Notes under the pieces: model-generated
Told to the model about the DNA's origin: nothing
What the model saw: only the letters and a program-made list of their open reading frames with translations
The model's database searches: none
Assembly: GCA_964016885.1 (NCBI GenBank)
Contig: CAXHJY010001017.1
Coordinates: forward strand, 29,531-93,530
Direction of reading: 5' to 3'
DNA: 64,000 nt
Source: Eledone cirrhosa
Lineage: Eukaryota
Position numbers and translations under genes: made by a program
Shown here: piece by piece, positions 1-49,790 of the stretch
Numbering within the stretch: the stretch's first letter is position 1
Layout of the letters: each line of letters starts with the position of its first letter

Positions 1-3965
<3,965 letters not shown>

Positions 3966-4037
3966 CCGAACTGAGGATCGCATAAGGTGAAACATTCGTT
4001 CTCAGATATGGTGAACTTACTGTTGTGGAACTACTTA

Positions 4038-4084
<47 letters not shown>

Positions 4085-4085
4085 T

Positions 4086-4206
4086 GGGGAAAATCGACTA
4101 ACTTTTAAATTCCATCTGTGATAACATTTTACACGTTTTTATTGTATGTAAACTTCCCCCTTTGTATTTGTCCCCTTCTTTTGTGCCCCTGTGGCTAATA
4201 AAGAAA
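4086..4206 (+). mobile_element. 5'-truncated 3' end of a Tx1-family LINE related to the downstream copy
   Basis: 4144-4206 (tatgtaaacttccccctttgtatttgtcccc...aataaagaaa) matches 9929-9990; preceded by (ATCT)n at 4039-4084. Confidence 0.8.
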
Positions 4207-4427
4207 TATATCTATCTATCTATTAATACACAAGATCTAGCTGTCGCTCTGTTTTGTTCAAATTTATTGAGGAAATTTTGTGAGTTCAAACTTAATTTTG
4301 ATACAATTGTGTAGCTTGACCCTCCGTCTGAACTGTCAGGCGGTGGGTCAGCTCATCTTTACCCCTCCTAGAGGTGAAAAACCTGTTTTAAAAATTTTGT
4401 GTAAAAAATTTCAATCGTCTAACAGAA

Positions 4428-6304
4428 ATGTTAAACGCAGCGAACGAAAATAGTGGTGGGGGGACAGCGGTAAGAGTTGTAAGCTCGCACGCTTTAGTCC
4501 TCCCTTCCTTCCCAACTAACGTCATAGAGAAGGAAGGAAAAATGAAAATAAAAACGGACGAATCTGCGGAGAAAAAATTAAATGACGAAAACAACGAAAA
4601 AAAAAATTTGAAAAATTGCATGACAATACTAATAACACAAACAAAGACACAACAAACAAAAAATAACAGTTGAAAATAACATCATATCAGAAAACAAAGC
4701 AGACGACAAGATTTCTTTTGCACAGAAAACAAAGAAATCTTTGACTTATATAGCGGAAAACATTTCAGATGTGGTACGAAGGATCACGGACGCAAAACAA
4801 TACATAAGTGAAGGTGAGATGGGTATTTTATTGGTAAAAATGCCTCAAGAATTCACGAAAGACATTGAAAGCCGAACGGTCAAGTTTCGGACCATCAACA
4901 ACAGTACAAAAAAACCTGAACAGCCTTCTCAAGCAGATATCAAAACAGTACTCGCAGAAGTACTGAATGAAACAACTTTCATAAGAAAAGACAGACTGTA
5001 TGGAAGCCTAGCAATTATCATGAAGAACGAATCGGCGGCAAAAAAATGTGCTTTGTCACCGATTCGTTCGAAAAATTTCACCTTTTATCCATCTTATATG
5101 GGAAAAAAAACTCAACGCATATGGCTGGATGCAATGATGCCAGATGTGGACTACTGCTGGCTCATAGCTGGCTTCATCGATCCAGTGAATGACAACGTGA
5201 TTTCCATTGGGAAAACCACAGGCAATGCGTTCAGTGGAACAGGTATAGAGCTGGTAGTACAAATGAAGCCTGAACGCATCGCCCAAATACCCGACAGAAT
5301 CCTATTAGAGGACCACGGGTATATAAACATTAGCGTGGAGGGGAGAAGGCCGTCCTGCCATATCTGTGCAGGCAGAGGGCACCTGAAGGCCGCTTGTCCA
5401 CAACTCAACAAAAAGAAAACTCTGCTACCAACACCAGCTCCACCACCACCACCACAACAGATAAACAAACAACAAAACTCAGTCCCACCCAACCCGTCCC
5501 TCAGTAACACCACAACACCACCACAACACAAACAGTCACAACACATTACCCCAAAACAAAATACAGGCCCACCCAACCTCTCACTCAATAAAACAACACA
5601 ACCACCGCAGACACAACACACAACACAGTCTAACATAGTGACATCCCATCTCCCCCACAAAGAAAACCAACACGGAAACATTACCAGCAAACATACCTCT
5701 TCCCTCCAACACTGAAGATAACCCAACGAATTCGGAGGAAGAAACGGAGTCCTTCAGACAGATTAAAAGGAAAAAAAGAAAACATGTGCAAAACACACAA
5801 GGACAAACAACCCCCACCCAAATCGCAACACAATCTAACAAAACAGAAAACACCCCTCCAGCAACAAACAAAACCAAACCTGCCCCTCCCCTCTTCGAAA
5901 CACTCACACCATCGGAAAAAAAGACATTACACTATACTTACATCAACAGAAACAATAATAAATTAAATGAACTCATATACAATAATCCTTCGGTACAAAC
6001 CGAAGGTGTAAACTTTGTTTCATCAGAAAACCACCCACATTTAAAACTAATAAAAATCCCAATGAACCTCTACCAAAAACTAAAAAAGGATTTTAAGGAG
6101 GACGTAGGACCACCCTCTGTCAAACCCATAAACCGCGTCCTACTAAAAAGCTTTCCCCCTCCCCTTCCCCTCCCCAACACAACTCCAAACACCCCAACCC
6201 CACCACACACCGACGACCCCACACCACCACAAGACACCCCTTCACCCAACACCCCCGACCCCATGGAAGTCGTGCAACCCGAACCCCGGGAAGCGGAAAG
6301 GTAG
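4428..6304 (+). pseudogene. Tx1 ORF1 (gag-like zinc-knuckle protein), split by two frameshifts
   Basis: Three consecutive ORFs in different frames (4428-4673, 4741-5715, 5786-6304); motif CHICAGRGHLKAAC (CX2CX4HX4C); Pro/Thr/Gln-rich tail. Confidence 0.8.
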
Positions 6305-6337
6305 GTCTCTACACTCTCCTTTGGCTCTGCCGCCCAC

Positions 6338-9300
6338 ATGGATGTGTTAAGAGTAGGATGTTTGAATGCACGTGGCCTGGGCTCAACTTGGAAGCAAGCA
6401 AAGCTTCTAAATGACCTCAGGTCATGTAGTATAAATGTAATGGTTATCTGTGAGACTCGAATCAGCGTCATGCGGCAGCTGGCCCCCACCTTCGATGACT
6501 TTGAGGTGCATGCATCTCTCTGTCAACCTGGAGGTGGGGGTGGGGTTGTCGTGCTGCTGCAAAAACACCTGGGTCTTGCCGTACAGGTTGTGCACTCGGA
6601 CCCGGAGGGTCGTTTGTTGGTGCTAGACGTTGGCAGTAGTGAAAGTGCGGCCTTGAGACTGGTCGCCGTCTACTCCCCTTTCGGAGCTGAACGGCCCGAC
6701 TTCTTCCAGCGTTTGGAGACTTTTCTGGGAACGTCGCGTTCCCTGCTTCTAGCGGGGGATTGGAATGACATCCTGGATGCACATTGGGACTATGCAGGAG
6801 CATGTCCTAATAGAGGGGGGTGTAACAGCCTCAAGGGGTTACTCGACCGTTTTAACTTGGTCGATAGATATCGACTAGATTTTCCAACTGTGCCTACCTG
6901 GACTTGGAGAAACCACAGTGGTCAATCTAGATCGTACTTAGATAGATTCTTAGTTAGAAGTAAGGATAGGGACATATTAAGCTGTCCAGAAATGCGCACG
7001 GTTGGCTACACGGATCACAAATTAGTGACCTGCGTGGTCAATCTCGAGAAAACACATAGACAGGGTCCCGGTTACTGGAAACTTAATTTGTTTTTACCGG
7101 CAAAAGAGACTTACAGAAACCGGATTAGCAGATTAGTTAAGGAGAGGTTGACGGGTGCAATCGTCAACAACCGATGGTGGGCATCTCTCAAAAGAGAGAT
7201 TAGAACAGAATCAATAAGTTATAGCAAGATGTTAGCTGCCAATAGGAATAGAAACGAGAAAGAATTAACAGGTAAATTAGAAGAGGCAATCAAGAGCGAA
7301 GATGTGGCCAGAGTGCTGGCATCGAGGACGGCCTTGAACCAGTTTTTCGATGCAAAGCATGAAGGCTGCGTCATTCGAAGTAAAATACGTGCTCTAGGTA
7401 ATGAGGGGGCCAAAGCCGTTGGATGGGCCCGCGTGACAGAAGCTAAAAGTGGAAATCGATCCACCATCCGGTCGTTGCAAGACGAAGATGGACGAGTGAT
7501 CCGGGAGCCTAAGCAGATGTGCGAGGCCTTTCAAAAGCACTTTGCCCGATTGTTCGGGGGAGGCGAGGGTCCGGGCCGGGGCGTGGATTTCGGTCCATAC
7601 CTCGACGGCCTGCCGCGTCTCTCGAACAAAGAGGCAGAGTCCTGCGAGGGACCAATCTCGGCTGATGAGATCGGAGATGCGCTGAGCCAATGCAGCAGAC
7701 GCAAATCTCCAGGTCTCGATGGTATACCTTACGAACTTTATTTAGCAATGCCGGTCTTCTTCTCCGAACTCCTCGAAGCGGTCTACTGCAATTGGCAGCA
7801 GAACGGGAGAATTCCTTGTTCTGTAGCCAAGGGCGTAGTCACGCTGGTGAGGAAGGACGAGAACAAGGGGGATAGTATAAATAATTTTCGGCCCATAACC
7901 CTGCTAAACACAGAGTTAAAGATTTTGGCCAAGGTGTTAGCAAAGAGGTTGGCGCTTGTCGTGGGTGGCCTGGTGGGAGATGCGCAGACATGTGCTATCC
8001 CATCCAGGTCCATTCACGATAACCTCCACCTCATGCGATACATCATAGAGAGGGTTGGCAACAAACCCGGCTTCGGTGGGGCCCTGATCAACTTGGATCA
8101 GTCTAAGGCCTTCGATAGGGTCGACCATGGTTACCTGGATGCGGTGCTAGCGGCGGCTGGGTTCGGTCCTGTTTTCAGAGGCTGGATCACTGCCCTACAT
8201 AGCAACCACATCTGTTCTAGGATCAAGGTGAACGGCTACCTTTCGAAGCCGTTCGAAATCACACGATCCATTCGACAGGGGTGCCCTCTCTCCTCCCTTC
8301 TGTACGTATTGACTCTCGAGCCTTTACTGAGGAAGTTGGAGTTGTTGCAGGGTATCCCCCTGGAACCAGGATTGAGCAAAGCGGTGTCGGCCTACGCCGA
8401 TGACGTAACAGTAATGGTATCAACCGACTCGGAGATCGAGGCGATCGGTACCTTACTGGAGGAGTACGAAAGGTTGTCAGGAGCGAAACTGAACCGGGAA
8501 AAATCCATCGGGCTGCAACTCGGAACGTGGAGAGGCAAACCGATGCCTCCTGACGGTGTCGTCGGACACTGGACGGAGGGCCCGGTAAAGTTGCTTGGGG
8601 TCTGGTTTGGACCGGACCTCCAGGTGGAAAAGAACTGGAACGAGGTTACGAACAAGGTGTTTGCACTAACCCAGAAATGGGCCAAGTGTAAGCTGTCCCT
8701 AAAAGGCCGGGCGGAGGTGGCGAACATTTACATAGCGTCCGTCACTTACTACCGCCTGACTGTCGTGCCTTGCCCTAAGGAAACACTCACCACCATGGAA
8801 CGCATGCTCTTCCAATTTCTTTGGAAGAAGCGTCCTCCTATGGTGAGAAGATCCATCTGCTGCCAACAACCTTCGAAAGGAGGGCTGGGGATGCCGTGGT
8901 TGATGATGCGTAGGCACGCATTAAGGCTACGGCACCTACAGGTATTCCTCACTGGTCAACCGGTGTGGGCTCCGTTCGTGAAACGAGCCTTTCCGAGACT
9001 CATCTCACTCACCGAGCTACAGTCCTGGGTCAAGCAAAGATCCGGAAAACTGGGAGACTGGCACACTGAGTGTGCTCAGGCGCTCAGGGCTCTCTGGCAA
9101 GCGGGCCGGGCCATCGGTGGAGAATCCACCTCATCATTCTATAGAGGGCTGGTGGCTAGCAGGGGCGATGACACCCTTGGAGAGTCGCTGGACATGGAGG
9201 AAGACGAACTGGCCAGCCTGTTCGGTAGGACTTTCGGCCCAGGACCAATGGACAACTTCCAGAAGTCACTGGCCTGGCAGTGCTACCGAGGGGCTCTACC

Positions 9301-9775
9301 CGTTCGAGAGAGGCTCTACAGACACGGGCGCCCGGGCAGGGATCCCTCAAAAAAGATTTGCCCTAGATGTGTGCGTCACGAAGAAACCGTGGCGCACGCA
9401 TTGGTGCAATGTCCGGGCGTGGCTGATCTGTGGGGCTACGCCGAACAACTGCTGTCGCGGGTGGCGCCGATTAAATTGACCGCCGAGTCCGTGATGACAA
9501 TCAAACCGCCTCCCCTCTTCACAAAGGAAGCAAAGGCGGTTTTTCTGTGCGTAATAGCCATGTTGAAAGAGGTTGTTTGGTGGACACGATTGAAAGGTCT
9601 GAGGTCAGGCAACTTCCTCTCTGGCCATAGTCTGGTCTACTTCTTCCGATATCACTTCGGAAGAAGGATAAGAATGGAGAGAGAGGTGCTTGGCCACAGG
9701 CAGTTTTATGAAAGGTGGGTGATAGTGGCGAGAATGGCTCGTGTAAATGGGCCTTCTCTGTATACCATCCTGTAG
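6338..9775 (+). CDS. Tx1/L1 ORF2: APE endonuclease, reverse transcriptase and C-terminal zinc finger (1145 aa, uninterrupted)
   Basis: APE motifs LNARGL, ET, GDWN, LDRF, TDH; RT motifs SPGLDG, FRPITLLN, DQSKAFDRV, RQGCPLS, YADD; C-terminal CPRC..HALVQC. Confidence 0.96.
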   Translation: MDVLRVGCLNARGLGSTWKQAKLLNDLRSCSINVMVICETRISVMRQLAPTFDDFEVHASLCQPGGGGGVVVLLQKHLGLAVQVVHSDPEGRLLVLDVGSSESAALRLVAVYSPFGAERPDFFQRLETFLGTSRSLLLAGDWNDILDAHWDYAGACPNRGGCNSLKGLLDRFNLVDRYRLDFPTVPTWTWRNHSGQSRSYLDRFLVRSKDRDILSCPEMRTVGYTDHKLVTCVVNLEKTHRQGPGYWKLNLFLPAKETYRNRISRLVKERLTGAIVNNRWWASLKREIRTESISYSKMLAANRNRNEKELTGKLEEAIKSEDVARVLASRTALNQFFDAKHEGCVIRSKIRALGNEGAKAVGWARVTEAKSGNRSTIRSLQDEDGRVIREPKQMCEAFQKHFARLFGGGEGPGRGVDFGPYLDGLPRLSNKEAESCEGPISADEIGDALSQCSRRKSPGLDGIPYELYLAMPVFFSELLEAVYCNWQQNGRIPCSVAKGVVTLVRKDENKGDSINNFRPITLLNTELKILAKVLAKRLALVVGGLVGDAQTCAIPSRSIHDNLHLMRYIIERVGNKPGFGGALINLDQSKAFDRVDHGYLDAVLAAAGFGPVFRGWITALHSNHICSRIKVNGYLSKPFEITRSIRQGCPLSSLLYVLTLEPLLRKLELLQGIPLEPGLSKAVSAYADDVTVMVSTDSEIEAIGTLLEEYERLSGAKLNREKSIGLQLGTWRGKPMPPDGVVGHWTEGPVKLLGVWFGPDLQVEKNWNEVTNKVFALTQKWAKCKLSLKGRAEVANIYIASVTYYRLTVVPCPKETLTTMERMLFQFLWKKRPPMVRRSICCQQPSKGGLGMPWLMMRRHALRLRHLQVFLTGQPVWAPFVKRAFPRLISLTELQSWVKQRSGKLGDWHTECAQALRALWQAGRAIGGESTSSFYRGLVASRGDDTLGESLDMEEDELASLFGRTFGPGPMDNFQKSLAWQCYRGALPVRERLYRHGRPGRDPSKKICPRCVRHEETVAHALVQCPGVADLWGYAEQLLSRVAPIKLTAESVMTIKPPPLFTKEAKAVFLCVIAMLKEVVWWTRLKGLRSGNFLSGHSLVYFFRYHFGRRIRMEREVLGHRQFYERWVIVARMARVNGPSLYTIL

Positions 9776-40765: not shown

Positions 40766-40800
<35 letters not shown>

Positions 40801-41090
40801 TGTATATATACGTATATAGGAACGATCGACTTTCGTCAAATCGGACCGAGGGAACAATGTTTCCGTTGGTCTTTCCAATTGCTAATACTATCTATCGGTC
40901 GCAACTCCAGGTAGAAGGAGCAACGTGAAATAAAGTGTCTTGCTCAAGGACATAACGCATCGCCTGGTCCAGGAATCGATCTCACAACCTTACGATTGCG
41001 AATCCAATTCTCTAACCACTCAGCCACACGCCTTCACTATATATATATATATACATACTTATAAATATATATATATATACATACTTATAA

Positions 41091-41564: not shown

Positions 41565-42785
41565 TTATAAGTATATATATATATATATACTTATAAGTAT
41601 ATATATATATATATATACTTATAAGTATATATATATATATACACTTATAAGTATATATATGTATATATATACTTATATGTATATATAAAAGTATATATAT
41701 ACTTATAAGTATATATATACTTATATGTATATAATATACTTATAAGCATATATCTATATATATACTTATAAGTTTATATATGTATATATATATATATATT
41801 TATATATATACTTATAAGCATATATATACGTATAAGTATATATATGTATATATATATATACATATATACTTATAGGTATATATATATATATATATAAGTA
41901 AAAAGGAAAAGAAAATGCTGACAGATTTTTCCCAGTGAAAAATAGTTTAATTAGGAATAAGTATAAATTAGTAATAAGTAATGGTTAGTATTTAGTGTTA
42001 GTTTAAAGTTTTTTACCGGTTGCGCATTTCAAATGCTTTTCAAAAATAATTTTGGGATAGAGCGTTCGTGAATTGGTTGGTTGTTGAATGTCACGTGAAT
42101 AAGCACTATAATATTGATTGGTCGGTAGAAGTCACGTGAATGTTCAATAATAAAAGAGGTGAAATGATATACTTATAAGTATATATATGTATATATATAT
42201 ATATACATATATACTTATAAGCATATATATATATACTTATAAGTATATATATGTATTTATATATACATATATACTTATATGTATATATGTATATATATAT
42301 ATACTTATAAGTATATATATGTATATATATATATATATACTTATAAGTATATATATATATATATACTTATAAGTATATATATATATACTTATAAGTATAT
42401 ATATATATATTTATAAGTATATATGTATATATATGTACATATATACTTATAAGTATATATATATGTATATATATATATATATATATACTTATAAGTATAT
42501 ATGTATATATATATATATACATATATACTTATAAGTATATATATATATATATATATACTTATAAGTATATATATATATATTTATAAGTATATATGTATAT
42601 ATATATACATATATACCTATAAGTATATATATATGTATATATATATATATACATATATACTTATAAGTATATATATGTATATATACATATATACTTATAA
42701 GTATATATATGTATATATACATATATACTTATTAGCATATATATATATACTTATAAGTTTATATATGTACATATATACTTATAAG

Positions 42786-42816
<31 letters not shown>

Positions 42817-42888
42817 ATACATATATATACTTATAATTATATATATGTATATATATATATATATAAACATATATATATATACTTATAA

Positions 42889-42943
<55 letters not shown>

Positions 42944-42956
42944 TATATACTTATAA

Positions 42957-43018
<62 letters not shown>

Positions 43019-44179
43019 TTATAAGTATATATGTATATATATATACATATATACTTATAAATATATATATATATACTTATAAGTATATATATATATATAT
43101 ATATATACTTATAAGTATATATATATATAAATATATAAATAAATGTACGCATGAGACAGAGAAAGGGGGGTGTGCGTTGTTGGGATGATAGTATTTGTGT
43201 GAAGATATACTTCAGGCAAAAGATAAAATGCGAAAAGGTGTAAAGAATTGACTTTCCTCCGATGTTCATCCATTTAGAAGTACTATTTACTTATTAATGC
43301 ATATTGTTACTTAATTATCTCCCCTGGAGGCATTCTCCTTTCGTCTCATTATTTTGAAAAGACAATTGAATGATTATTCTGGCTTTCTTGGTTTCCTCCT
43401 TTTAACGAATTGCTTCCATATTGGATCACAGCCAGACAACTGCTGTCCATATTTTACCTAAAATGTAGTATTGTGTCGTTTCTTTAGTCTCTCAATGGCT
43501 TCTGTCATATCAGACGAGAAAGGGCAACCCTGTAATTTATAGTGGTGGTGGTGAGTGAAGGGATGAGGGGAGAAGAAGAAAGTGAGAGAGGAATCACAAA
43601 TTGTGGTGTTACTTGTAAATTGTGAGAAATTGCATTATACAATAATTCAACGGATTTGAGACAAAAGAAAAAAAAAAATGAACGCTCTGGATGAAAATTT
43701 GCAATCAGCATTGAAATTTCGATATTTTAATAGATTCTGAATTGATTTTGACTTTTTATCAGTTAACATTCGAAAACATCTCTGTCTGACGACCGATCCA
43801 GACGTATATTATTATTGTCTGAGATTCAGAAACCTTTGGTAATGGAGTAGTTATATTTTGTGTTGTTCACTTTCTAATATATATATGTATATGTATGTAA
43901 AAGGTAAACAGAAATAACAACATAATCGGTACAGTACATGGAAGGAATATATTAGGTTAACGCTTGAATTAGCAGGAAGAGGGTCTTAATGTTTCGGACG
44001 CTAGCCCTTCATAACTTAATATAGAAATGGCTTCTACAGGACTAGAACTGTTCGAAGGACACCATCAGGAAGACCCTGAAAGAAGGGCTTTCCTGATGAT
44101 TTTCTTCTAATGAAACAGTTCTAATACCGTAGAAGCCATTCCTATAGAAAATCTGTTTTATATATATATATATATATAT

Positions 44180-44526
44180 TAGAAAGTGAGGTTTTTTTTA
44201 CAAAATGAAAAATAACCGAGGTGTCCTACACGAGTGGAAGTATAAAGAAAAAGGGATGAAATCGAAAATGCAACTGAAGTCTTATTTTTTTTTAAAATAT
44301 ATATATTTATTTGGTTCCTTTACCGGTTTCGCAGTTCTTCTGCTTTTCAAAAGTAGAGTTGAGATGGAGGGTCTGTGGTTTTTCTGTGAGAAAAACCACA
44401 GACCCTCCATCTCAACTCACCTTTTGAAAAGCAGAAGAACTGCGAAACCGGTAAAGGAACCAAATAAATATATATATTTTAAAAAAAAATAAGACTTCAG
44501 TTGCATTTTCGATTTCATCCCTTTTT

Positions 44527-44532
<6 letters not shown>
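44180..44532. mobile_element. Near-perfect ~290-bp palindrome carrying a UUGAAAA-core hammerhead on each strand
   Basis: Arms 44241-44385 and 44389-44532; CCUU-UUGAAAA-GCAGaagaaCUGC-GAA-ACCGGU-A-AAGG at 44420-44457. Confidence 0.8.
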
Positions 44533-44574
<42 letters not shown>

Positions 44575-45039
44575 TGTCGATCGACTTTCGTCAATTCGAA
44601 CCGAGGAAACACTATTTCCGTTGGTCTTTCCAATTGCTAATACTATCTATCGGTCGCTACTCCAGGTAGGAGAACGGTGAAATAAAATGTCTTGCTCAAG
44701 GACATAACTCATCGGCTGGTCCAGGAATGAAAGTCACAACAAAAACACAATTATCAGGGCGAAACAGATTAAATTCCTAATCTGTCCGAGAGATGAAATA
44801 GTTATTGAGACGGTCAGAATATTTATTCTATATTTTCAGTTTGCTTCAGGTTAAATTTGTCAAACCAACGTGGTATTTCAACCCTCGTAATTTTAGGCAC
44901 ACAATTTACTGTGTTTATTTCTACATATATTATTATATAATGCCCAGTATTTATACTTTGAGCTTGTTAATTACAGAGTATCTATATGAGTTATTAACTC
45001 TGTATTTTATTTATATGTATATATATATTATGGAGACTT

Positions 45040-48000
45040 AGCCATAAGCAATCAAGCATTATGCATGGCACTACCCGAAACGCACCTGACAAGCAGTATA
45101 GCAGATGCAGAAATACATATACCGAAATATACTGTATTTCGTTCGGACAGGAAGGAGAGAACTCATGGTGGGGTTGCTCTGTATATCCGTGAAGGTGTCA
45201 CACCAATTGTATTGTTGACACATTCAAACTCAGTCTGTGACACACTGATAATACATATGAAGCAACTAAAGACAGTAATATGTGTCACATATATGCTGCC
45301 CGATGCCCCCAGTCATGAGGGTAAATTTGAGGATAGCCCCAGTAGTATAGAAGAGCTCCTTGACAAACTGGACCAGGGTCTCAACATTCTACTGCTGGGA
45401 GACTTCAACCTGCCAAAGGTCAAATGCCCTGAGGGCCACCTCCTCCCTGGAATGACGTCAATAGAACAGAGACAGACGGAATTCGTGCTGGCCCTCACAC
45501 ACAGGCTGTTCATGGAACAAGTAGTACTCCTCCCAACAAGAGGCGAAAATGTCCTGGACCTCTGTTTTACAAACAACGAATTGCTCATACACAATGTAAA
45601 GGTGACACCAACAATTTTCTACAAGGCTAACGGGAAAAAGATCAAGAGAGAAATCCGGAAGCAAATATAGAGCGAAAACACCGCCACACAAGACACCAAC
45701 ACACAATTTCAACACTTCATGACAACGATACACACTATATGCAAGAAGTTTGTCCCGGAGAAAAGGGCAAACAGACACAAAAATCTTATTCCCAGAGATA
45801 GGAAAATCCTCATGAGACGTAGAACCAAGCTCTCAAAAAGTTGAATGCACAACAAGAAAACAAAAACAAGAAGGAATCCTATTTGAAACGTGCACTACTT
45901 GGCACCGAGATTGCACTCAAACTTTCCCATGAAAATGAGAGGGCAAAGAAAGAAAGCATGGCCATAGAAAATATTAAAACAAACCCTAAGGCCTTCTTTA
46001 AATTTGCAAAAGAAACTGCCTCGGTACGCTACAAAATTGGGCCACTCTTCCATACAGACGGTTCATTAACCGAGAATCCCCAAGAGATATGTGAAATACT
46101 TGTTTCTACTTTAGGCACAAGGCCAGCAATTACCCAGTGCATTACTGGTACTTTATTTTATCGACCCCGTAAGGATGAAAGGCAAAGTCAACCTCGGCGG
46201 GATTTGAACTCAGATCGTAAAGGGACGTAACTATGCTTGAAAGCATGGCGTCCGACCCTCTACCGATACTGCCAATCCACCGCCCTAGATATGTGAAATA
46301 CTAAACGAACAGTACAAAAGTGTGTTCACATGTCCACTGAGGCACATGCAAATAACAATGCCAGAGGAGTTCTTTGATGCCACAACACTACATGAAGAAA
46401 TGGCGACCATCAACCACATAGACATAACGGAGGAGGATGTGGTGTACGCCATTGATGAAATTAGAACAGACTCAGCTGCTGGATCTGATGGATTCCCAGC
46501 AGTCCTCTTAAAAATATGTAAGCGGGCCTTAGCAACTCTACTGAAGACGCTCTTCAGAAGCTCCTTGGCTAGCGGTATACTACCCAGGGAGCTGAAAGAA
46601 GGCACAATATGTCCTATCCATAAAGGAGGTAGCAGAGCGGAGGCTCAAAACTATAGGCCAGTCTCCCTGACGTCGCATATCAGTAAGGTCATGGAGCGAG
46701 TCGTCAGAAAGAAACTGATCACTTTCCTTGAGGAAAATAACCGCCTGACTAGCACGCAGCATGGCTTCCGCCCAGGAAGAAGCTGCCTTACACAGCTGCT
46801 ACATCACTACGACTGGGCACTGAAACAAACAACTGTTAGACAGCTCACATGTGGACGTGATATATCTTGACTTTGCGAAGGCCTTTGGCAAGGTCGACCA
46901 TGGAATGATATGTCATAATCTACACGGACTCGGCATAACTGGAAAATTAGGTGAGTGGCTGCATGACTTCTTAAAGAACAGCAGCCAGACAGTCGCAGCA
47001 AACGGGGCCCTCTCAAAGGAAACATCAATAACAAGTGGGGTGCCCCAAGGGACAGTCCTGGGGCCACTACTGTTTTTGGTGGCTCTCTCAGACATGCCCT
47101 CTGTAGTACATACACCAACATCCCTCACTAGCTATGCTGATGACACTAAGGTAGCACAGGCAATCAAAAACCCGGTTGACGCTGCCCTTTTACAAGATCT
47201 GGATACCATATACAAATGGATGGAAGAAAACAACATGCAGTTTAATGCTGGCAAATTCCAAGCCCTACAATACAAACCTGCAAACACAAATACAGTAGGA
47301 CACAGTTACGCAGGACCAGGAGTGACCGATATCCCCGTGTCAAAATCGGTACGAGACCTGGGTATAGACATGAGCGATGATGCATCTTTTTCCTCACACA
47401 TCATGAAAGTGACGACAATGTGCAGACGACTCGCTGGCTGGATCTTGAGGACTTTCCGGACAAGAGACCGAGACACCATCTTGACACTATGGAGGAAATT
47501 TGTCCTAAACCGCCTGGAATATTGCTCCCAGTTGTGGTCACCCCATAGTGTCAAACTAACCACAGAGCTTGAGGCAATCCAGCGAAGCTACACCAAGAGG
47601 ATTTCCACGATGAAGGAGACAAGCTACTGGGAGAGGCTAAAAGAACTGAACCTCTACTCCTTGGAGCGAAGACGGGAGAGATACGCAGTGATCTACATGT
47701 GGAAAATCCTGGAGGGACTAGCACCAAATTTTGGCATTGGGAGCTGGACCAACCGTTGAACAGGACGTCATTATGTGGTGCCAAAGGTCCCGTCTTCCAC
47801 ATCTAGGATAAGGAGCAGATATTGCAATAGCCTGGGATTCAAGAGCCCTCTACTCTTCAACAAGCTGCCGAGGGATCTGAGAGATTAGCATGGTGTGGAG
47901 GTGGATGTCTTCAAGAAACATCTCGACACCATGCTATCCAGGATCCCGGATGAGCCCACAGCAAGGTACGAGGGACACCTAAGAGCAGCAGCAATAAACT

Positions 48001-49194: not shown

Positions 49195-49790
49195 CCATCG
49201 TCCTTTGTAAAATCGGATGTGTCTGTGTCTGATGAATTAAGCCTACCCATAGTCTTTTGTAAAACCGGATGTGTCTGGATATATTTACTCTATCCATCGT
49301 CCTTTGTGAAAACCAGATGTGTCTGATGACTTAAGCCTTCCCATCATCCTTTGTAAAATCGGATGTGTCTGATGACGTAAACTTACCTATCGTCCATTGT
49401 AAAACCGGATGTCTGGTGAATTAAGCCTTCCCATCGTCCTTTGTAAATAACCGGATGTGTCTGGGTATATTTACTCTATTCATCGACTTTGTAAAACCGG
49501 ATGTGTCTGATGACTTAAATTAACCTATTGTCCTTCGTAAAACCGGATGTGTCTGCTGGCTTAAACATACTCATCGTCCATGGTAAAATCGGATGTGACT
49601 AAAGCCTACCTATCATCCTTTGTAAAACCGGATGTCTGATGACTTAAGCCTATCCATCATCCTTTGTAAAACCGGATGTGACTGATGACTTAAGCCTACC
49701 TATCGTCCTTTGTAAAACCGGATGTGGCTGATGACTTAAGCATACCCATCATCCTTTGTAAAACCGGATATGTTATAAAACCGGATTTAC
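49195..49790. repeat. ~46-bp degenerate minisatellite, ~13 units
   Basis: catcgtcctttgtaaaaccggatgtgtctgatgacttaagcctacc. Confidence 0.92.

Follow-up and report, generated by a model that had tools for sequence, protein, structure and literature searches.

Probable slow-cutting minimal hammerheads in the pLTRs of two young sister PLE families of Eledone cirrhosa, one with A13C fixed

The hammerhead core contains a contact between A13 and the nucleotide at position 17 (N17). Natural deviations from the core consensus have been catalogued, and a section of Perreault et al. (2011, PMC3088659) lists U3-A8, A6C, A6a, U13a and U15.1-A16.1; A13C is not among the variants in that section. The closest described systems are found in PLEs. 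In the Cercyon PLEs of Schistosoma mansoni (families Sm3/Sm4), hammerheads with a U3-A8 core were missed by the first descriptor and then gave ~1,300 matches (Cervera and De la Pena 2014, PMC4209133); an Sm4 example in the published alignment has the core UUGAAAAA. These motifs are of type I, lie in the pLTR, have a palindromic residual stem III and a G10.1-C11.1 pair, and occur genome-wide as single or inverted stubs. The PAc element (Poseidon) of Anolis carolinensis also carries a pLTR hammerhead, with a C3-G8 core and a single reading frame whose start lies within the ribozyme; it has two reverse-transcription start sites that give rise to a 'tail', A/T-rich targets and uncut RNA as its main template (Frangieh et al. 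2024, PMC11167929). Finally, the Neptune and Nematis EN+ PLEs combine RT, a CX2-5CxxC linker common to both clades, a C-terminal GIY-YIG domain and (TA)n targets with a tail on one end, an inverted 5' copy and an optional ORF1 joined by frameshift, the frameshifted ORF1 being shown in Fig. 1 of Craig et al. (2021, PMC8557442).

The window analysed here, a stretch of 64,000 nt of Eledone cirrhosa DNA, contains a palindrome that is a short two-ended PLE insertion, a stub of a family that we call A, together with a stub of a sister family, B (Table 1). A loose core pattern matches the window three times (44424+, 44322- and 42015-) against 0.02 matches expected, and none of 100 shuffles reaches three. 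The first-pass annotation had given the motif as beginning CCUU-UUGAAAA on both arms of the palindrome; every letter is present at 44420-44457, but on the left arm the 5' strand of stem I is ACUU, which leaves three pairs and an A.G mismatch. For the motif at 42009-42046 it had reported a UUGAAAA core, ACCGGU, a GCAU/AUGC stem II and A13C, all of which the sequence bears out, and had called this island otherwise dissimilar. The latter description does not stand, as the island belongs to family B, shares 72% identity with family A across 123 nt that lead up to and include the motif, and carries a C13 that is family-wide. Standard models do overlook the motif: Rfam calls no hammerhead in the window at the gathering threshold, nor does one appear in 41900-44600 at E<=10, where all 128 matches, hairpin types included, are put down to chance and none attains its gathering score. 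MicroRNA matches at 44350-44424 in the latter search were rejected, as they reflect the DNA palindrome.

Table 1 Features of the window (positions in the 64,000-nt stretch; hammerhead assignments and cut sites are predictions)
Feature	Position	Strand	Details
Palindromic insertion, family A stub	44180..44531		~350 nt, two-ended
Inverted arm, family A stub	44180..44385	-	pLTR plus 'tail' extension, ending in (TA)n
Forward arm, family A stub	44385..44531	+	starts 68 nt upstream of the predicted cut, where the family prefers to have its 5' end; stops in (TA)n, at the shorter of the pLTR ends
Family A minimal type I hammerhead motif	44420..44457	+	stem I CCUU (44420-44423)/AAGG (44454-44457); core UUGAAAA 44424-44430 (U3-U4-G5-A6-A7-A8-A9) and GAA 44444-44446 (G12-A13-A14); stem II, 4 bp, GCAG 44431-44434/CUGC 44440-44443; palindrome ACCGGU 44447-44452; A17 at 44453; predicted cut after A17
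Second family A motif, inverted arm	44317..44354	-	stem I ACUU/AAGG; predicted cut after A17 (44321)
Family B motif	42009..42046	-	U3-A8 core; stem II GCAU(U)/(A)AUGC; G12-C13-A14, C13 at 42022; ACCGGU; A17 at 42014; stem I of A-U pairs only
5'-truncated family B pLTR stub (subfamily B3)	41895..42166	-	between (TA)n-rich repeats
Tandem repeat	49224..49773		46-nt unit, 12 copies, with CUGAUGA and ACCGGA, without G12-A-A-A; no hammerhead fold recognised
SINE-like repeat, 143 nt	40775..40917 and 44530..44672		copies 90% identical; one adjoins the family A stub
Non-LTR retrotransposon, apparently intact	4636..9775		359-aa ORF1 and 1,156-aa endonuclease-RT frame
Broken LINE fragments	44990..47759		endonuclease-RT

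In their type I architecture, pLTR location, palindromic residual stem III, G10.1-C11.1 pair, U3-A8 core and genome-wide occurrence as single or inverted stubs, the motifs resemble those of Sm3/Sm4. Families A and B differ from these in a stem II of 4-5 bp, a 6-nt ACCGGU palindrome and a copy number of ~23,000 (PMC4209133). A9 is followed directly by G10.1, with no extra nucleotide separating position 9 from 10.1, as in some of the published examples (PMC4209133). The U3-A8 covariation is shared with the natural core variants (PMC3088659), and the novelty implied for this core by the first-pass annotation falls away, given that it has been published for PLE minimal hammerheads together with the failure of the CUGANGA descriptor to find them (PMC4209133). 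The U3-A8 cores described here are new members of a variant already published. The C13 of family B stands apart: the published 56-motif alignment has GAAA in every 3' core cell (one of them AGAAA), and GAAA is required by its descriptor (PMC4209133). Neither a natural C13 hammerhead nor 'A13C' in connection with a hammerhead was found in the literature searched, a scope that excludes Lünse et al. (2017) and supplements such as the per-mutant data of PMC9901934. As far as these searches reach, a C13 fixed in a thriving sister family is new.

The abundance of family A was determined by exact pattern searches across the 3.0-Gb genome, which also underlie the other copy counts. Its 29-nt core occurs in 11,625 exact copies, and a reversed-pattern control returned 0. 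When position 3 was freed the count rose to 11,726, of which 11,625 carry U3, and a pattern with C3-G8 in the core and stem III unchanged gave two matches genome-wide. The element behind the motif was reached by following one copy upstream to a GIY-YIG fragment and searching the genome with that fragment, which yielded at least 150 scored matches, many of them within frames of 775 aa. In 14 of 16 loci picked for long frames, the exact motif follows the 775-aa RT and GIY-YIG frame at a distance of ~1.0-1.4 kb, on the coding strand, and in tandem copies the motif is present again upstream of the frame; in full-length copies the distance is ~1.1 kb. The protein matches RVT_1 at E=4.9e-6, which is below the curated cut-off, and GIY-YIG at E=3.7e-6, above it, with a CX4CxxC linker between RT and EN, and the 16 frames have a mean pairwise nucleotide identity of 99.5%. 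In L023, L024, L025 and L029, the GIY-YIG frames close to family A motifs were left out of account because they were taken to belong to other PLEs inserted alongside; such families, with a different GIY-YIG type or Naiad-like frames, share (TA)n tracts with family A in L008, L023 and L025 and in L024, L029 and L158. Proteins 45-50% identical to that of family A (P0012, P0037, P0041, P0056) are deposited under bacterial symbionts of bivalves and are probably host DNA within symbiont assemblies.

The insertions abut (TA)n and have two alternative 3' ends, which lie ~79 and ~147 nt beyond the site of the predicted cut, in an approximate survey of end positions in which overlapping loci were counted twice and A/B cross-matches are mixed in. 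Of 11 inverted pairs, eight have the tail end on one arm and the pLTR end on the other, the remaining three having one unclassified end, and this use of one end per arm corresponds to the known PLE 'tail' pattern. An origin of the two arms from two different RNAs finds no support as a general rule, the stem I subfamily variant being the same on both arms in 10/11 pairs; the insertion in the window is the exception. Both families have an ATG-led ORF1 of ~400 aa, which has no Pfam match and overlaps an ATG-less RT-endonuclease frame by a -1 shift (L073:1259-2461 and 2371-4695; L143:2812-6071, minus strand). Inside the overlap, in the ORF1 frame, both families keep a U UUU UUA sequence, which is likely a programmed -1 frameshift site. 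The putative pLTR hammerhead, the tail, the A/T-rich targets and the probable use of uncut RNA as main template recall PAc; unlike in PAc, the motif lies ~170-200 nt upstream of ORF1, the two frames overlap and the zinc finger is of the Neptune/Nematis type. The CX2-5CxxC linker seen in the A and B proteins, the RT and C-terminal GIY-YIG domains, the (TA)n targets, the tail on one end, the inverted 5' copy and the frameshifted ORF1 suggest that the elements are of Neptune/Nematis type (PMC8557442), and the linker, present in both clades, does not separate the two.

Family B is likewise autonomous and young. Eleven intact frames of 784 aa have a mean pairwise nucleotide identity of 99.2%, and in a search with the B endonuclease all 150 scored matches were 100% identical, among the matches listed. 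RVT_1 was found on a partial frame, and the full 784-aa frame is 55.8% identical to the family A protein. B motifs occur in 16/17 loci around B frames, with C13 in 29/29 motifs. With the exact sequence of 42009-42046 and position 13 left free, 62 copies were found, comprising 58 C, 2 G, 2 U and no A; with the loop also free, 11,104 copies have C13 versus 155 with another base. A pattern anchored in the flanks alone matched 9,687 copies and showed, by eye in the first 100 of them, U3-A8 in 100/100 and C13 in 98/100. Decay of a single copy, considered as the origin of A13C, is ruled out by the 11,104 to 155 ratio, the flank-anchored copies and the motifs around B frames. The non-C13 rows, inspected by eye for the first 100 of the 155, consist of 50 U, 35 A and 15 G, with no enrichment of reversion to A13, and some of the A13 rows belong to an older family A lineage (L166). 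Three B subfamily consensuses, to which 122 of 134 copies could be assigned with 12 left out, differ at 29/151 flank columns and at 1/29 motif columns, the latter in the loop (Fisher p=0.025), in line with constraint on the motif. Pattern selection accounts for part of this motif invariance, for which the first 100 flank-anchored copies serve as a check. Among the sequencing runs listed with the B motif none was of RNA. Contigs with B motifs from three differently labelled sequencing runs have position 13 unchanged; their depth is low and they may be the same organism's DNA, so we do not count them as evidence. In L267, an intact B frame lies between two motifs that each have C3 opposite A8, a 3-8 pair broken at both ends of one insertion, and U13, G13 or A13 likewise occurs in both ends of single B insertions. 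Such core mutations at both ends fit copying without a perfect core.

Two older low-copy families, C and D, have 16 pattern matches genome-wide (L189-L204). These copies have the U3-A8 core, A13 in 15/16, a GCU/AGC stem II and mostly C or U at position 17, and PLE protein remnants lie upstream of 2/16. At least four families therefore share the U3-A8 core and, with A13 present in C and D, U3-A8 is common to the lineage and C13 is derived in family B by parsimony. The proposal of the first-pass annotation that a PLE lineage has fixed U3-A8 is thereby upheld: the motif sits in the pLTR of RT and GIY-YIG elements, and genome-wide pattern searches, of the kind it had put forward as a check, return U3-A8, not C3-G8, as the family consensus. 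L166, an old copy of family A type, combines a B-like stem II (GCAU/AUGC) with A13, which suggests that this form of stem II is older than A13C. A separate family in the same genome (L019, L071) has a canonical CUGAUGA core, an ACUAGU palindrome and a 7-bp stem I.

The fold is supported by covariation. Across 23 sequences chosen for comparison (three from A, four from B, six from C and ten from D), three of the four stem I pairs show changes on both sides, in 19 cells, a result reached in 0/500 shuffles, and stem I pairing amounts to 87% versus 15-34% for slid controls. At 10.3-11.3, stem II is A-U in A and B and U-A in C and D, a change that was read directly, since MAFFT gaps hid it from the count. 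The sample consists of four related families and motif invariance is partly set by pattern selection, so these figures support the fold and do not give a probability for it. Families A, C and D keep G5, A6, A9, G12, A14, A15.1-U16.1 and H17 (A, C or U), and family A has the pattern G12 A13 A14 A15.1 ... U16.1 H17 in the form of GAAA, U16.1 and A17. Family B departs from it at position 13 and is to be regarded as a variant, not as a consensus member of the type I hammerheads. A lone motif is unable to close stem III because ACCGGU has no loop; as a duplex it is computed at -8.3 kcal/mol, and it forms between strands in 4/4 cofolds. Stem I is predicted to be weak in family A and unstable in family B, with computed duplex energies of -1.7 kcal/mol (A), 0.0 (left arm of A) and +2.2 to +2.4 kcal/mol (B), and the best predicted fold of the B1 monomer sequesters the core in another hairpin.

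We consider it probable, at roughly 70%, that the motifs in the pLTRs of the two families are minimal type I hammerheads that would cut slowly after GUA as an ACCGGU-paired dimer, family B, with A13C fixed, cutting much more weakly yet reaching ~11,000 copies. The site of the predicted cut is spanned by at least 11,625 copies in A and at least 11,104 in B. Where inverted pairs are truncated, 6/15 partner arms in A and 8/17 in B begin at the same homologous position, 60-72 nt upstream of the cut, and the approximate survey of end positions shows this cluster as well. Taken together, the shared start and the more than 22,000 copies that span the cut point to an RNA 5' end at this spot and to uncut RNA as the usual template, which matches the anole PLE (PMC11167929). 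Transcription would thus start 60-72 nt upstream of the predicted cut, and reverse transcription would begin downstream of the motif and usually run through it uncut. Cutting may then be incidental or come late, probably with the aid of the protein that the element encodes; in the anole PLE it likewise needed protein and was dispensable for insertion in vitro (PMC11167929). A weakened core could then be tolerated in family B while the fold is kept. Copying does not appear to need cutting. In 30 loci scored by script and the first 100 rows inspected per family, the 5' ends of neither family pile up sharply at the predicted cut, and both show no more than a mild step there. The scripted truncations, 15 in A and 17 in B, are spread over the range. 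By eye, 18/43 (A) and 20/47 (B) 5' ends fall at 0 to +7 past the cut (p 0.04 and 0.03, for a range picked post hoc), in rows that were the first 100 of 1,147 (A) and of 306 (B), minus indel variants and ambiguous rows. Changes of A13 reduce cutting 10-100-fold (PMC4075628), which makes family B most likely attenuated. In a double-mutant scan the 3-8 pair was rescued only by G3-C8 (PMC9901934), which counts against efficient cutting even in family A, although a U3-A8 hammerhead is reported to be active in vitro (PMC3088659).

It is unlikely, in our estimation, that family B instead has a fully working variant core in which something makes up for C13, for example a pair with A17 that mirrors the A13-C17 contact, or the protein of the element. 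On this unlikely reading, family B would be a natural hammerhead whose core departs from the consensus at three bases (U3, A8 and C13) and which still cuts efficiently, either by way of a different 13-17 contact or aided by its own protein. C13 does persist through three B subfamilies in which the remaining core bases and the palindrome are intact, and A and B show the same mild surplus of 5' ends immediately 3' of the predicted cut. This surplus is weak, was picked out post hoc and does not amount to a peak, however; A17 accompanies A13 in family A and so did not arrive together with C13, stem I of B is weakened as well, and the cost of A13 changes (PMC4075628) weighs against such compensation. 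Somewhat less likely still, neither family would cut, and the motif would be kept for protein binding or for RNA dimerisation through stem II and ACCGGU, or would overlap pLTR promoter sequence. Such a role would be in line with templates copied mostly uncut, with the core mutations in both ends of single insertions (C3 opposite A8 in L267; paired U13, G13 or A13) and with the spread of Naiad PLEs without hammerheads, but A, C and D retain every one of the catalytic positions, and the covariation in stem I extends exactly across the cut site, neither of which a pure dimer signal would need. A chance resemblance in A/T-rich repeat DNA, to which a short, A-rich motif not called by Rfam might be ascribed, is very improbable and already contradicted by position and covariation, given the shuffles (0/100), the reversed-pattern control (0 versus 11,625) and the same place of the motif in four PLE families with compensatory stems.

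Families A and B form a pair that is more useful than the U3-A8 core by itself: they are equally young and equally successful sister elements in one genome that differ at an otherwise invariant base of the catalytic core. The role of PLE hammerheads has been described as unclear, and in one in vitro study cutting was dispensable for insertion (PMC11167929). If family B barely cuts, it would provide evidence on a genome scale that PLE spread needs no efficient cutting while the fold is kept. If it cuts well, the consensus of the hammerhead core must be widened to include a new variant overlooked by both CUGANGA and GAAA descriptors. With A13C fixed in family B, the question of whether cutting is required of PLE hammerheads can readily be put to the test.
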